Below are positions 13,235 to 18,185 of a stretch of 57,020 nt of DNA, one piece after another. The DNA lies in the sequence record SRR31156797_1719; one strand, 5' to 3'. The notes under the pieces were generated by a model that worked only from the letters and a program-made list of their open reading frames with translations, made no database searches and was not told the DNA's origin. Each line of letters opens with the position of its first letter. Position 1 is the stretch's first letter. Position numbers and translations under genes: made by a program.

Positions 13235-14047
13235 ATGAATGTATTGCATATATCAGATATCCATTTTCGAGAAAGTTACCTGCCTTGTGAAGAAGGGTAT
13301 CAAGGAATGCTGGCAGCCATGCAAAATCCTTTGATTCCTCTTGAAGAGTGTATCCAAGATGCCAAGGCGCGAGCAGCGATCGATTTGGTGGTGATCAGCG
13401 GCGATTTGACCGAAGATGGCGCGCCTGCCGATTATGCCTCTTTGAAGCAATATTTAGAAAAAGCCTTTGGCTCAGTGCCCATCGTAGTAACGCTAGGTAA
13501 TCATGATATCAAACGGCATTTTCGCCAAGGCTGGCAAGGCAAGTCAGTAGAAACCGCCAGTGATACACCTTTTAATCAAGTCTATGAAACGGAGACATTG
13601 GCGATCGTGACTTTCGATAATTCCTGCTATGGCTATGCCGACGGTATCGTAGATGAGCGACAGTTTGAATGGCTGCAAGCCACGCTGGCGCAGCTCAAAG
13701 AGAAAAAGATCGTTTTTGTGACGCACCATCATTTGTTGCCCGACCAAGCAAGCACGCCGGCATGGGCCGGTGCCAATCGTTTGGTGGCATTATTGCAGCA
13801 GTATCAAATCTCTTGTATTCTCAGTGGACATACCCATCATGCGTTTACGGGAACGATCGCAGGGATTCCTTACTATACTGTGGCAAGTATGTCGTTTGTC
13901 GGGGAAGATGAAGGCGATGGGATGGTCCGTTTTGAAGAACGCTATGGATACAATTTGTATCGTTTCGAGGAAGGTGCATTGGTTCATCAATCCTCAGAAA
14001 ACTATCGACCGAACCGTGTATTGATGCGGGTCAACATGCAAGGATAA
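13235..14047 (+). CDS. Calcineurin-like metallophosphoesterase, CpdA/Icc/GpdQ (class III PDE) type, cytoplasmic
   Basis: HISDIH, SGDLTEDG, LGNHD, THHH, SGHTH motifs; no signal peptide. Confidence 0.88.
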   Translation: MNVLHISDIHFRESYLPCEEGYQGMLAAMQNPLIPLEECIQDAKARAAIDLVVISGDLTEDGAPADYASLKQYLEKAFGSVPIVVTLGNHDIKRHFRQGWQGKSVETASDTPFNQVYETETLAIVTFDNSCYGYADGIVDERQFEWLQATLAQLKEKKIVFVTHHHLLPDQASTPAWAGANRLVALLQQYQISCILSGHTHHAFTGTIAGIPYYTVASMSFVGEDEGDGMVRFEERYGYNLYRFEEGALVHQSSENYRPNRVLMRVNMQG

Positions 14048-14103
14048 AAACAGACGTTCCGTCAACGCTGCCTTTAGCAGCAGGAAAGGAACGTCTGTTT
14101 TTG
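14046..14103. terminator. Bidirectional terminator
   Basis: AAAAACAGACGTTCC 14046-14060 / GGAACGTCTGTTTTT 14088-14102 between convergent genes. Confidence 0.8.
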
Positions 14104-14115
14104 TGTGAAAAAGGC

Positions 14116-14601
14116 TTAGCCTTGATTGCCAAAGGTTTTGACAACTTCAATCGTGCCGTCGATATGAAAAAACAAGGTATAATTTTCTTCGGTTTTGATG
14201 CCATCAAAACGGCGGGCATAATAGGTGACCGCGTCTTTGAAGGTTTGTGGGGGAACCCCTAAAAAATCAGCGCATGCCGCCAATGTTTTGCAGCCTTCTT
14301 CAAAACAAGCGATGATATCATAGGGCGTGACCACGATCGCAGAACCAATGTCGCGGGCTTTGCGTTCTTGTTTGCGTTTTTCGTTGGTGTCTTGGGCGGT
14401 AATGTCGCCAGCACTGGTCAGATAATGACCGATTTCTTCACCGATGGTGCTCAAGAGGTCTTCTTGTGATTGGTCAGGGTTCAAGTAAATATGGTGATCG
14501 ATGTACAATCCTTGCTGACCATCAGGCATATTTTTATCGAAAATAAAGTGCAAGTCTGGGTAGGCGGCCATCAGTTCTTCTACTTTATCCATTTCCATCA
14601 T
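14116..14601 (-). CDS. ImmA/IrrE-family (Peptidase M78-like) metallopeptidase / anti-repressor
   Basis: GLY...IYLN...TIGEEIGHYLT...QERKAR; C-terminal helix ACADFLGV; overlaps XRE stop codon. Confidence 0.82.
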   Translation of the reverse strand: MMEMDKVEELMAAYPDLHFIFDKNMPDGQQGLYIDHHIYLNPDQSQEDLLSTIGEEIGHYLTSAGDITAQDTNEKRKQERKARDIGSAIVVTPYDIIACFEEGCKTLAACADFLGVPPQTFKDAVTYYARRFDGIKTEENYTLFFHIDGTIEVVKTFGNQG

Positions 14602-14930
14602 TCCTTTTGGGCGTGCCGCTGTTTTGTAAATTCAATATAGCTGAGGATATCTTCCATCTGCTCATCGGTGACGTCATCATCAATATGGGCCGCAACGGTT
14701 TGAACTTTTGCAGAGGGCTGCGTAAAGCCTGCCGGGACTTGTCTGCCTAATAAAAAATCGGTGGATACTTGAAAAATCTCCGCGAGTTTGACGATGGTCT
14801 CGCCATCGGGTTCGTTACGATCATTTTCGAAATGAGAATACGCTGCGCGGGTGATTCCCAGCTGATCTGCGATCTGCTGTTGGGTTTGATTGGTTCGTAG
14901 TCTGAGTGTTCTTAGCCGTTCGCCAAGCAT
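14598..14930 (-). CDS. XRE/Cro-CI repressor (ImmR/cI-like)
   Basis: LGERLRTLR...TQQQIADQLGITRAAYSHFENDRNEPD...VSTDFLLGR; C-terminal TVAAHID; GGAGG RBS. Confidence 0.92.
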   Translation of the reverse strand: MLGERLRTLRLRTNQTQQQIADQLGITRAAYSHFENDRNEPDGETIVKLAEIFQVSTDFLLGRQVPAGFTQPSAKVQTVAAHIDDDVTDEQMEDILSYIEFTKQRHAQKE

Positions 14931-14952
14931 GAGTGATCGCCTCCTTTTTTGT

Positions 14953-15073
14953 AGTATAGCACGTTAGATATAATTTGTATCTATTTTTGTATTATTTGAT
15001 ATAAAAAATATCACATTAGTTGACGATACGAATCGTATCTTTCATACTGGAAACAGATGATATGAATCGTATC
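14953..15073. promoter_or_regulatory. Divergent promoters with four GATA-N7-TATC operators
   Basis: Operators 14967-14981, 14998-15012, 15025-15039, 15059-15073; rightward TTGACG(15020)-17-CATACT(15043); leftward TGcTATACT 14961-14953. Confidence 0.8.
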
Positions 15074-15092
15074 AAAAGAATGGGGGAGGATC

Positions 15093-15458
15093 ATGGATAC
15101 ATCGATCGTAACAGTTGTCTTGCCGTCACTCATTACTGGTGTACTTACTTATTTGGCTACCCGAGTATCCAGCAAAGCGAATTTGGAACAAACGAATATC
15201 GAAAATGCCCAGAAGCTTTACCTAAAATATGAACAAATCAATCAAGAATTGACCCATAAAATCGATCAGTTAGAAGAAGAAGTCCAAAAGACCACTAAAA
15301 CCTACCAAGAAGAAGTCTTAGTTTATCAAGGAAAACTTGCTACTGCCCAAAGCGAACGGGATTTTTTGCGGGCAGAAAATCAGGTGCTGAAAGAATTACA
15401 GCGAGTAAATCAAGTGCCTGGCACGCGTGAAGAGAAGCAACATTCAGCCGTTGGCTAA
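15093..15458 (+). CDS. Small protein with N-terminal TM helix and long coiled coil; function unknown
   Basis: GGAGG RBS; IVTVVLPSLITGVLTYLA hydrophobic segment then E/Q/K heptad-like region; own terminator. Confidence 0.8.
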   Translation: MDTSIVTVVLPSLITGVLTYLATRVSSKANLEQTNIENAQKLYLKYEQINQELTHKIDQLEEEVQKTTKTYQEEVLVYQGKLATAQSERDFLRAENQVLKELQRVNQVPGTREEKQHSAVG

Positions 15459-15461
15459 TAG

Positions 15462-15497
15462 AAAAAAACTGCTTATCCGTCAATAAGCAGTTTTTTC
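15462..15497. terminator. Bidirectional terminator
   Basis: GAAAAAAACTGCTTAT-loop-ATAAGCAGTTTTTTC. Confidence 0.82.
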
Positions 15498-15499
15498 GA

Positions 15500-17251
15500 T
15501 TAGTTGATCATTTGTTCATTGACATAGGCAGCATAAAGCGGGTGGTTGTTGATCAATTGTGCATGGGTACCTTGACCGGTAATGGTGCCTTTTTCTATAA
15601 AGTAGATTTGGTCGGCATCCACGATGGTCGATAAGCGATGAGCGATCACTAATGTCGTACGTCCTTCCATCAAATGATCCAACGCCCGCTGGACTTTTTC
15701 TTCTGACTGAGAATCTAGGCTGGCAGTCGCTTCATCCAGCATCAGCAGCTTGGGATCCCGCAAGAATGCTCGAGCGATGGCGATCCGTTGTTTTTGACCA
15801 CCAGATAGTTTGACGCCGCGTTCGCCGATTTGTGTTTCTAGTTTTTCGGGGAACTCTTGGACGAACTGATCGGCATAAGCCAATGCCAGTCCTTGCCACA
15901 ATTCCTCCTCTGACAGCGTCCGGCCCAATCCGTATTGCAAGTTTTCCCGAATCGTACCGGCAAAGACCGCGCTGTCTTGGGAAACATAGCCGATCTGTGC
16001 CCGCCAGTTTTGCAGATCAATGTCAGCTATCGGCTGATCTCCAATCAGCAAGCGCCCGCTGGTGGGCTCATAAAAGCGTTCCAGTAAAGCAAAAATCGTG
16101 GATTTTCCGCCGCCGCTTGGTCCTGCAAAAGCAATCACGGTGTTGGGTTTGGCTTCAAAAGAAATGTTTTGCAAAATCGGCCGTTTGGGATCGTAACTGA
16201 AATCGATTTGTTCTGCTCGTAAGACTGCTCCATCGATGGCGGCTTTGGGTGCTGCTTGAATTGGTTCTAGCGGCGTATCCAAAATTTCTTGGATCCGTTC
16301 CGTAGCACCCATCGCTTTTTGGACTTGTGAAAAGAACATCGCAAACGTCGTTACAGGCGCAATAATATTAAAGAGATACAGTAGAAAAGCGATCAATGCG
16401 CCGCTCGTCAAGGTGCCGGCTTGCACACGGATCGCGCCATAACCGAGGATTCCTACGAGTAAGCCCAGCATGGCCGTCGTCATGATTGGCTGCAAAATCG
16501 CACTGACTTTCGCATCCTTGACCCCGAGGGTAAAAATTGCCCCAATGTTGCGCCGACCGTTTTCTTGTTCACTGGCTTCTCCGTTGCTGGCTTTGATCAA
16601 ACGGATCTCTGAGAGCTTTTCGCTGGCATCCGCATTGAAATCGGCGGTCGCTGCTTGCAACTGGCGTCCCAGTTTTGACATGATCTTGCCGATTGGCCAC
16701 ATGATCAAGGTGATCAAAGGCACCGCACTGAACATGATCGCAGCCATCTTCCAGTCCATCAAAAACAAGATGATCATCGAACCGATCAATTGGATCAAGC
16801 CAGTGACAAAGCTGGGAAATTGCGAGGTGACTAGTTCTTTGATCACTGACGTATCATTGACGAGTCGCGAACTGCTTTCCCCCGACTTGTGGTCATCAAA
16901 ATAGCTGACTGGCAAATGCAGCAGATGTTTCCAAAGACGTTCCCGCAACGTTTTCACAGCACTTTCTCCAACATAGCGCAAGAGAAAGCCGCCTAAAGTC
17001 CCTACGCCTAATTGCAGCACAAAGGCTAGGATCAAAACGACCAGCATGGAGGTGCTGAACGTGGGGGTGCCGCTGGCATCGACCAGTGTTTTCGTCAGCT
17101 GCGGCACGACCAAACTGGCGGCACTTGTGATCAGGCTAAAGAGCATCCCTAAAAGAAACAAGCCTTTCTTAGGATTGACACTGACGATCAGGTGGATAAA
17201 GTCTTTCATTTTAAATTTGTTTTTGTTCACTGTTGGTGTCGTTGTTTCCAT
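15500..17251 (-). CDS. Multidrug ABC exporter (fused TMD-NBD), LmrA/BmrA-like
   Basis: 6-TM domain; GPSGGGKST, LSGGQKQR, LMLDEATASLD, IAHRLST; ATG 17251 after GGAGG. Confidence 0.93.
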   Translation of the reverse strand: METTTPTVNKNKFKMKDFIHLIVSVNPKKGLFLLGMLFSLITSAASLVVPQLTKTLVDASGTPTFSTSMLVVLILAFVLQLGVGTLGGFLLRYVGESAVKTLRERLWKHLLHLPVSYFDDHKSGESSSRLVNDTSVIKELVTSQFPSFVTGLIQLIGSMIILFLMDWKMAAIMFSAVPLITLIMWPIGKIMSKLGRQLQAATADFNADASEKLSEIRLIKASNGEASEQENGRRNIGAIFTLGVKDAKVSAILQPIMTTAMLGLLVGILGYGAIRVQAGTLTSGALIAFLLYLFNIIAPVTTFAMFFSQVQKAMGATERIQEILDTPLEPIQAAPKAAIDGAVLRAEQIDFSYDPKRPILQNISFEAKPNTVIAFAGPSGGGKSTIFALLERFYEPTSGRLLIGDQPIADIDLQNWRAQIGYVSQDSAVFAGTIRENLQYGLGRTLSEEELWQGLALAYADQFVQEFPEKLETQIGERGVKLSGGQKQRIAIARAFLRDPKLLMLDEATASLDSQSEEKVQRALDHLMEGRTTLVIAHRLSTIVDADQIYFIEKGTITGQGTHAQLINNHPLYAAYVNEQMIN

Positions 17252-17310: not shown

Positions 17311-18165
17311 TTAGAAATCCTGCCAATCCTCCTCGGCTGCTTCGTCTTTAGAAGCGGAAGTCGGTTTTGCTTTGCGGTCTTGTCCAAACCCGTAGGCATC
17401 AAAAAAGTTGCCTTTTACCCATGTGTACCGTGGATCATTCGCCTCGCTATTATCAAACGGCCCAAACGGCCCAAACGGCTCAAATGGTCGATTGCCAACC
17501 ATGCCGCGATGTCCAGGAAACGGCATTTGCCGCATGGCTTCCTTGATCTGTTTTTTCATTTTGCGTCGCTCATCAACGCCCATTTCTTGCCAAGTATCTT
17601 TCATTTGTTGCCTCATTTTTCGACGATCCTCATTCGACATTTCCTGCCAATTTCCGTCCCATTGCTTCATCATTTCTTCCCGAATCTCTTGCATGGCTTG
17701 CAAACGATCCATTGGGTCAATAAAGCGTTGTGCCTGCTGTTGGAAGTCCGTCTCCCACCCAGCGGCGATGTTTTCAAGCAGACGAGCAAATTCGGTTTGT
17801 TCCTCCTCTGAGAGCCCAGCAAAAAACGACTGACTGCTGGTGGCTTCTTTTTGTGCTAGTAATTTTTCCGCTTTTTTTCTTCCAGTTTCTGTCAGGTAGA
17901 TTCGTTTGATTCGTTTGTCAGCAGCATCTTCTTTGCGATGAATATCGCCACTATTTTCCATTTTCTTCAATAGTTCCGCTAGAGAGCTTGGCCGTAGGTC
18001 TAAGACTTCTGCAAGATAACTTTGCACCAAGCCGTCTTCTAAATTTAAAACGGCCAGGACACGTTGCTGTCCCGAAAGGCGCTGGTTGTTTTGACTCATA
18101 AAGGCATTGCTGGCTTCGCTGATAAAACGAAGCTGTTTCATTAAGTGGTCGGTCATTGTACTCAT
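17311..18165 (-). CDS. MarR-family regulator with long Met/Gln/Arg-rich C-terminal extension
   Basis: MarR wHTH (QSYLAEVLDLRPSSLAELLKKME, DAADKR, LTETG); ATG 18165 after AAAGGAG. Confidence 0.88.
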   Translation of the reverse strand: MSTMTDHLMKQLRFISEASNAFMSQNNQRLSGQQRVLAVLNLEDGLVQSYLAEVLDLRPSSLAELLKKMENSGDIHRKEDAADKRIKRIYLTETGRKKAEKLLAQKEATSSQSFFAGLSEEEQTEFARLLENIAAGWETDFQQQAQRFIDPMDRLQAMQEIREEMMKQWDGNWQEMSNEDRRKMRQQMKDTWQEMGVDERRKMKKQIKEAMRQMPFPGHRGMVGNRPFEPFGPFGPFDNSEANDPRYTWVKGNFFDAYGFGQDRKAKPTSASKDEAAEEDWQDF

Positions 18166-18185
18166 GGTGTACACTCCTTTTGGTT

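Follow-up and report, generated by a model that had tools for sequence, protein, structure and literature searches.

An MpaR/CI-like switch of probable prophage origin facing a single membrane-protein gene in the Enterococcus casseliflavus/gallinarum group

The stretch of DNA analyzed here (the window) comprises 57,020 nt of record SRR31156797_1719, and all coordinates below are positions in it. It carries a compact three-gene unit in which an XRE/CI-like repressor and an ImmA/IrrE-family metalloprotease face a single gene encoding a 121-residue membrane protein. On balance, we read the unit as an MpaR/CI-like proteolytic switch of prophage origin that has been fixed in g1, the genus-level group of Enterococcus casseliflavus/gallinarum, and whose output in cis is most likely a lysis-related membrane protein. 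The assignment of the window to this group follows the names carried by near-identical proteins. The evidence that carries this reading is the gene content of the unit, its conservation and the selection acting on it, the conservation of its operators, the identity of the MpaR recognition motif in the repressor, and the phage context in which relatives of the 121-residue protein are found.

The repressor-protease pair and its control region

The metalloprotease gene (14116..14601, minus strand, 161 residues) shares 4 nt (ATGA) with the repressor gene (14598..14930, minus strand, 110 residues), and the gene for the 121-residue protein (15093..15458, plus strand) is divergent from both in the list of open reading frames (ORFs). 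This is the layout that the original prediction had described, a coupled XRE gene and ImmA-like gene with an EEIGH site facing a gene for a transmembrane (TM) and coiled-coil protein, and ORFs, Pfam and folding confirm it.

The protease is placed in the ImmA/IrrE family, as an MpaR-type member, by PF06114, phrog_87, its conserved site and its structural model. It scores above the curated cut-off of PF06114 Peptidase_M78 (29 bits against 22, E 1e-6) and matches the metallo-protease family phrog_87 in PHROGs with E 6e-28; NCBIfam holds no family for it, and its profile found no match at E<=1 among the sequences of solved structures. The metal site, E55-E56-I-G-H59 together with E79, reads EEIGH rather than the canonical HExxH. 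Glu replaces the first His in 26/26 aligned relatives, and E55, E56, G58, H59 and E79 are invariant among these 26, prophage copies included, indicating that the substitution is a trait of the subfamily and not a sign of inactivation. The predicted structure (mean predicted local distance difference test score, pLDDT, 85.9) is most similar to PprI/IrrE and to a Mycobacterium tuberculosis regulator. VIA-align gives Z of 7.4 to 8.4 over 124-137 residues, which is the middling range of that tool, with the next row at 5.6; Foldseek gives E ~3e-3, a probability of 1.00 and a TM-score of 0.52. At the sequence level, the protease is 32% identical to gp35 of Listeria phage A118 (E 4e-15, with 91% of the query covered). 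Listeria phages account for 36 of the 111 phage records that match. A118 gp35 is named as an MpaR homolog by Argov et al. 2019 (PMC6872733), so that the relatedness of the window protease to MpaR runs through gp35 and not through the MpaR sequence itself.

The repressor matches Pfam HTH_3 (E 6.4e-14) and consists of a helix-turn-helix (HTH) domain (residues 1-62), a linker and the segment T78-VAAHIDDDVTDEQMEDILSYIE-100; in NCBIfam, both it and the 121-residue protein give only matches below cut-off. In the Listeria monocin module, a CI-like repressor is co-transcribed with the DUF955 metalloprotease MpaR, divergently from the controlled genes (PMC6872733). The metal site of MpaR is EELMH and an H54A mutant is inactive; its cleavage site in CI-like repressors is the A74-H75 bond of TIAAHID, within the conserved sequence TIAAHIDxxxxEExxxxILAYIE, according to the same report (PMC6872733). 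Residues 78-100 of the window repressor, TVAAHIDDDVTDEQMEDILSYIE, match this published recognition region with three conservative differences (I to V, E to D and A to S), and residues Q77-D84 are invariant in the repressor alignment. With the search pattern widened for those three differences, the recognition region was found in 9/9 g1 sequences, in 3/3 of genus g15 and in 10/11 of genus g10, and in 1/8 prophage or other loci; four more of these eight retain AAHID, and three have no such motif. The cut in the window repressor is accordingly predicted between A81 and H82 of TVAAHID. Because of the recognition region, the EExxH site and the relation to A118 gp35, we classify the pair as MpaR/CI-like, within the ImmA/ImmR kind; its switch mechanism is well supported by homology.

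The 162-bp region between the divergent genes contains four 15-bp palindromes of the form GATAY-N5-RTATC, which overlap divergent predicted promoters. The leftward promoter, which would serve the XRE-ImmA operon, is inferred from an extended -10 element, TGCTATACT, read from the sequence of the minus strand at 14953..14961, whose columns are conserved in an eight-sequence alignment. The rightward promoter, which would serve the 121-residue gene, is a consensus match at 15020..15048 on the plus strand (TTGACG, 17 nt, CATACT), and TTGACG and TATACT are conserved in the eight sequences. Four operator-like palindromes are recognized by pattern and conservation: O1, GATATAATTTGTATC (14967..14981), lies at about -21 to -35 of the leftward promoter; O2, GATATAAAAAATATC (14998..15012), follows; O3, GATACGAATCGTATC (15025..15039), is within the spacer of the rightward promoter, between TTGACG at 15020 and CATACT at 15043; and O4, GATATGAATCGTATC (15059..15073), is immediately 3' of the rightward -10 element. 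The pattern occurs five times in the window against 0.06 expected, and 0/100 shuffled sequences reach five. When the window is aligned with seven g1 genomes, the half-sites, TTGACG, both -10 elements and the ribosome-binding site stand out as conserved islands in a diverged spacer. Most loci have four operators, and the loci of genome G004 have three.

The genome nearest to the window, G001, contains 41 sites of this pattern, and the module is their sole cluster. Among the remaining single sites (n=36), seven have at least four A/T positions in the spacer, and all seven are inside open frames of 153-337 residues; by this test, the regulon would be local. The window has one more perfect palindrome of operator type, the fifth (GATACAATTTGTATC, 13947-13961), inside the 3' part of the metallophosphoesterase gene and about 1 kb from O1. 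It is found in the three closest genomes and is missing from two further loci (L007 and L008) despite the same flank, and may be due to chance or be a lineage-specific auxiliary site.

Conservation and chromosomal setting in g1

The unit is present in 8/8 genomes of g1 species, with DNA identity to the window of 96-98% in three and 74-75% in five. Among the three proteins, conservation is highest in the protease (83-99% identity to the window), followed by the repressor (74-98%) and the 121-residue protein (46-98%), the first 50 residues of which are the conserved part. Ratios of nonsynonymous to synonymous substitution rates (dN/dS) are 0.014-0.053 for the ImmA-like gene, 0.015-0.084 for the XRE gene and 0.135-0.244 for the 121-residue gene, where dS is unsaturated; synonymous sites are saturated between the deeper g1 lineages, and values are given only for computable pairs. 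In a protease tree of 30 rows, with a midpoint root for drawing only, the g1 proteases are monophyletic (support 99/98) and nested in a clade (100/99) with prophage proteases and that of the g15 cassette. Relatives of the protease at E<=1e-10 are found in 47 of 134 genomes of the taxonomic family.

The presence of the unit in all eight genomes and dN/dS values of 0.01-0.24 indicate that it is a fixed chromosomal feature of g1 under purifying selection and not a decaying scar. The original prediction had proposed a domesticated phage-type ImmA/XRE switch, and both the low dN/dS and the single clade formed by the ImmA copies agree with it. It had also named the outcome that would speak against this, a cassette confined to a few strains, with attachment (att) sites and decaying genes; comparison of synteny and substitution rates instead finds intact genes in 8/8 genomes, and no convincing direct repeats were found flanking the unit in the window. 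The adenosine triphosphate-binding cassette (ABC) exporter gene adjoins the 121-residue gene in the window and in six genomes; in one genome an extra ORF lies between them, and in one the contig ends. The flank on the protease side is variable among the g1 genomes.

A decayed relative of the unit occurs in genome G002 (L075, G002:C1:1450403-1453417, positions 1116-1755), where an XRE repressor with TIAAHIDDD accompanies a protease cut down to a 62-residue C-terminal fragment. This remnant also includes a 197-residue membrane protein and is located beside a LysR gene. Its repressor is a possible target in trans of the conserved protease.

The ends of the window unit are closed by bidirectional intrinsic terminators. 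One (14044..14104) separates the metallophosphoesterase gene from the ImmA-like gene and has U/A runs on both sides, with folding energies of -33.6 kcal/mol (z -7.07) on one strand and -31.7 kcal/mol (z -6.96) on the other. The second (15455..15503), at -17.9 kcal/mol (z -6.49) and -20.0 kcal/mol (z -8.12), is common to the 121-residue gene and the ABC exporter gene convergent with it. Folding of either strand gives both hairpins z of -6.5 to -8.1 against shuffled sequences, with 0/200 shuffles equal, bearing out the terminators proposed from sequence inspection; a simple terminator scan flagged neither hairpin. The nearest neighbors identified with Pfam are a phosphonate ABC system, the metallophosphoesterase, the ABC exporter and a MarR regulator. 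Of sixteen further ORFs scanned within about 10 kb, 15 belong to transporter, phosphotransferase system (PTS), regulator or enzyme families and one is unmatched. Pfam scans detected no phage or mobile families, integrase and xis included, among neighbors within about 10 kb, and a search for flanking att-like direct repeats yielded only weak, chance-like pairs; over this distance, the absence of mobile genes and att repeats noted earlier holds. The MarR-family regulator (17311-18174, minus strand) has 287 residues, which is unusually long for the family, and its C-terminal extension of repeated acidic, Gln and Met segments gives a weak DUF3106-like match.

The 121-residue protein and its phage relatives

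The 121-residue protein has one hydrophobic segment, residues 5-23, with a mean Kyte-Doolittle value of 1.89. Modeling with AlphaFold, which had been suggested as a check, gives a single helix from residue 3 to 106 (pLDDT 84). The acidic tip MDTS precedes the TM segment and RVSSK follows it, and by the positive-inside rule the remainder of the protein, the long helix, should face the cytoplasm. In one heptad register, 15/23 a/d positions are hydrophobic. No Pfam family scores above cut-off, and a word-based search returned only close relatives that are unnamed or annotated as 'hypothetical'. Matches in the ESM Atlas are mostly unnamed viral clusters, with one automatic 'YabA' label and one DUF7365 cluster. 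Kinship with BhlA/UviB was considered and rejected, as PF10960 is unmatched at E<=0.1 and hhalign assigns a probability of 0.4% against the BhlA proteins of g10.

More distant relatives, together with the model, place the protein in an unnamed phage family that precedes holins. A profile search of 1.84 billion representatives identified 41 proteins at E<=1e-3, of which 13 reach E<=1e-10; they are mostly of about 50-160 residues, with two longer outliers of 237 and 885. The members that were fetched have in common the N-terminal TM segment, a coiled coil and the motif (K/R)xxNKxxLExTNxENAxxLYxxY, and many terminate in a KGG-type sequence; Pfam gives generic coiled-coil matches for 20 of them and no covering family. 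The single match in a phage collection is ORF44 of E. gallinarum phage phiEG37K (40% identity, E 2e-13), which stands in the order BppU-type tail protein, 119-residue multi-pass membrane protein, ORF44, Holin_LLH holin, amidase. Relatives are thus carried by g1 phages, both in phiEG37K and in a prophage fragment of genome G007 (L059). When 401 genomes of the order were searched in six frames with the profile, the family was detected in 18, including 4/4 g1 genomes sampled, with profile E-values outside g1 reaching 1e-36.

Outside the g1 module, 15/17 loci show the same order, in which a multi-pass membrane gene is followed by the relative, often overlapping it, and then by a holin. The multi-pass partner has about 104-149 residues, the 104-residue one possibly starting further upstream, and belongs to phrog_8980 (unknown function) where scanned. 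The 15 downstream ORFs span six Pfam holin families, 13 of them above the curated cut-off and two below, and a peptidoglycan hydrolase domain (endolysin) is found in 13/13 of the next ORFs scanned. Two loci depart from this order, L050, whose next ORF is collagen-like, and L056. Members of the family are thus phage genes that accompany a membrane-protein gene at the start of the lysis cassette, irrespective of holin type. Among the options in the original prediction, that of a protein derived from a lysis cassette fits both this arrangement and the identity to phiEG37K ORF44. The two-gene membrane module is seen before holins in Lactobacillales phages and prophages at L038 (5622-6633), L043-L049, L051-L055 and L057-L059. 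Prediction of a complex between the Holin_LLH holin of L059 and the 121-residue protein, run without controls or a supplied alignment, scored 0.00 and gave no verdict for or against an interaction.

Some relatives of the protease belong to ordinary lysogeny modules, in which integrase, lipoprotein, protease and repressor genes are followed by cro-like genes. Others form orphan cassettes. One of these, the nearest sister switch, occurs in g15, which is Tetragenococcus by the names given to near-identical proteins (L016-L018 and L060, G143:C1:166000-184000; module at 6361-10295 of L060). Here a DUF5067 lipoprotein, an ImmA-like protease and an XRE repressor face a Hol44-type holin and an Amidase_2 endolysin; the same GATAY-N5-RTATC sites as in the window are present, one of them in a TTGACG spacer, and the flanks contain GNAT, PTS, HAD and pyridoxal phosphate (PLP)-enzyme genes. 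The g15 cassette looks like a stand-alone holin-lysin pair under repressor control. A second type occurs in g10 (L024-L035 and L061, G044:C1:1043000-1059000; module at 6016-8166 of L061), where the XRE repressor and ImmA-like protease face a 129-residue phrog_36 transcription regulator (an activator), a 71-residue BhlA holin (PF10960) and a 93-residue Hol118/Hol44-like holin. It is positioned beside a cold-shock-like gene among housekeeping genes, has no adjacent endolysin and is kept in many g10 species. Seen beside the g15 and g10 cassettes, the window unit belongs to a series of phage switches that were retained with lysis-region genes only.

Proposed mechanism, alternatives and comparison with known systems

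In the mechanism that we propose, the XRE repressor would bind the four GATAY-N5-RTATC operators, keeping the 121-residue gene off and limiting its own operon. A stress signal, most likely DNA damage via RecA, as reported for ImmA and MpaR, would activate the EEIGH protease, which would then cleave the TVAAHID segment of the repressor between A81 and H82. The sole gene freed in cis would encode a single-pass membrane protein with a coiled coil facing the cytoplasm, and this protein would tune or trigger holin-type permeabilization, either that of its own cell or that of resident or infecting phages. The 121-residue protein most likely acts at the membrane in a role related to lysis, because of the fixed place of its family before holins and because of the sister cassettes; our confidence in this is modest, since both phage neighbors have been lost in the window.

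Several points weigh against this scheme. A promoter scan of the control region returned six promoter-like sites against 6.3 expected by chance, the two promoters described above being consensus matches, and in the window only about 3 nt separate the Shine-Dalgarno sequence from the ATG. G001 encodes an ordinary LexA. The protease may owe its very high conservation to an additional role in trans, of the kind that MpaR has. In the 121-residue protein, the C-terminal half is fast-evolving, with 46-60% identity between deeper lineages, and the phrog matches of its family are labeled 'unknown function'. With neither the multi-pass partner nor a holin beside the gene in the window, the phage role may not carry over. 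DNA binding, cleavage, signal, topology and effector function all enter the scheme as steps that we infer.

A rival explanation, which we consider unlikely, is that the unit is kept mainly for its protease, as a host-owned anti-repressor that cleaves the repressors of co-resident prophages in trans, with the 121-residue gene as a secondary passenger. Listeria MpaR acts on multiple phages and its tree follows the species tree (PMC6872733), the window protease is the most conserved of the three gene products with the lowest dN/dS range, and the G002 repressor with TIAAHIDDD, next to a protease reduced to 62 residues, could be such a target. Set against this, a search of five g1 genomes for AAHID-coding DNA, which would miss variants of the motif, recovered the module in 5/5 and only two repressor-like matches, the rest being unrelated; the match in G001, a prophage repressor, has its own intact protease, so that an orphan target is present in one genome of five, that of G002. 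The exact operator pattern was not found near the two ImmA paralogs of G001, and the supposed passenger is itself kept in 8/8 genomes under purifying selection. The earlier suggestion that the unit controls other elements in trans therefore retains its precedent in MpaR (PMC6872733) and gains a single candidate target in five genomes.

It is less likely still that the 121-residue protein is a damage-induced division inhibitor like YneA or SosA, wired to the ImmA/XRE pair instead of LexA. A small membrane-anchored protein behind a stress-type switch would suit this role, and a few members of the family weakly match the DivIC and ZapB coiled coils; these matches are below cut-offs and amount to generic coiled-coil noise. 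Pfam detects no LysM or other YneA feature. For the LexA independence proposed in the original prediction, the analysis covers a search for GAAC-N4-GTTC, the core of the LexA box, and none occurs in the window. YneA and SosA act via an extracellular C-terminus, and the charge distribution of the 121-residue protein predicts a cytoplasmic long helix; its relatives, moreover, sit in phage lysis regions, as in phiEG37K and 15/17 loci. A point in favor comes from the lexA locus of G001 (L087, G001:C5:129084-132263), where lexA (209 residues) is divergent from a gene for a 79-residue, soluble-looking protein and no YneA-like membrane gene was seen, the small genes there being judged without a family-library scan. 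At the same locus, lexA is followed by a gene for a 73-residue protein with hydrophobic stretches and a His/Tyr-rich tail.

We regard as similarly improbable an anti-phage or toxin module, in which a CapH/CapP-like switch would raise a membrane-disrupting effector and cause abortive infection. The repressor does match the PADLOC capH profile (E 8.2e-12) as well as RmrA profiles, and its effector, membrane-bound and phage-derived, has relatives in g1 phages. The capH match, however, is in the general HTH region, the protease and the 121-residue protein have no PADLOC model at E<=0.01 except for one weak coiled-coil match, and Pfam scans revealed no defense genes of known type within about 10 kb. 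The division-inhibitor, toxin or abortive-infection, and immunity readings offered in the original prediction thus draw no support from these data. That the unit is a functionless prophage scar heading for decay is very improbable, for its phage ancestry, small size and lack of integrase or structural genes are outweighed by three genes intact in 8/8 genomes despite saturated synonymous sites, by the dN/dS values, by conserved operators and promoter elements, and by the contrast with the genuinely decayed copy in G002, whose protease is truncated.

The preferred reading, a phage-derived proteolytic switch with a lysis-related output, can be extended, if only tentatively, to all three orphan cassettes. 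Those of g1, g15 and g10 might be host-owned, stress-triggered membrane-permeabilization switches of the Enterococcaceae, with the 121-residue protein as a new kind of effector of lysis or regulator of holins, able to act in the absence of its phage partners. If so, this protein might force or block lysis upon DNA damage or phage attack, with altruistic lysis, release of DNA or vesicles, or abortive infection as consequences. The unit would be the second independent case, after MpaR of the Listeria monocin, of a phage repressor/protease switch owned by a genus; as it is stripped to one output gene, the biology of that output should be easy to isolate. The analysis also points to an uncharacterized two-gene membrane module before holins of six families in Lactobacillales phages, which may have a role in lysis timing. 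It suggests that stress-inducible, phage-derived lysis switches recur on Enterococcaceae chromosomes, with relevance for how prophages are induced, cells lyse and DNA is released among gut enterococci. Apart from the papers on Listeria MpaR, a literature search brought up no description of a unit of this kind or of the pre-holin family.

Among known systems, the SOS inhibitors YneA and SosA differ from the 121-residue protein, which has no LysM and no LexA-box core in its window. PBSX XhlA and BhlA/UviB are small membrane-anchored coiled-coil proteins encoded beside holins. The 121-residue protein is alike in build; no sequence relation to BhlA was found, and XhlA was left without direct comparison. 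The CapH/CapP pair of cyclic-oligonucleotide-based antiphage signaling systems (CBASS) is matched by the repressor only, and the window unit has no adjacent CBASS or defense operon. IrrE (PprI)/DdrO of Deinococcus supplies the best structural matches of the protease (8sln, 3dti, 3dte and 8slm, Z 7.4-8.4) and is a chromosomal, host-owned damage switch, as is proposed here. IrrE chains are longer, at 240-248 residues against 161 in the window protease, and include additional C-terminal domains, and identity is 17%; the repressor motif and operators also differ, and DdrO controls a repair regulon. In ICEBs1 of Bacillus subtilis, an integrase gene is part of the switch operon, and xis and conjugation genes lie opposite. 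The window unit, in contrast, has no integrase, xis or att-like repeat. What it does share with the ImmR/ImmA system of that element is the logic of an XRE repressor with a downstream anti-repressor protease, autoregulation and divergent promoters, as described in PMC6872733.

The closest counterparts are the sister cassettes and the Listeria monocin module. The g15 and g10 cassettes have the same protease subfamily and repressor motif, g15 also has the operators in common, and both have housekeeping neighbors; their outputs, unlike that of the window unit, are recognizable holins with or without an endolysin, whereas the window output is the pre-holin coiled-coil protein alone. The monocin switch controls a pair of early genes and, after them, a tailocin cluster of 17 genes that includes a lysis module; it also acts on other prophages in trans (PMC6872733). 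The window unit differs in having one terminator-closed membrane gene as its output in cis, and its cleavage and induction are predicted. In both, a repressor is co-transcribed with a DUF955/M78 protease bearing an EExxH site, and the repressor carries T(I/V)AAHIDxxxx(E/D)ExxxxIL(A/S)YIE; like the monocin module as Argov et al. describe it, the window unit is phage-derived, vertically kept and conserved across a genus (PMC6872733).

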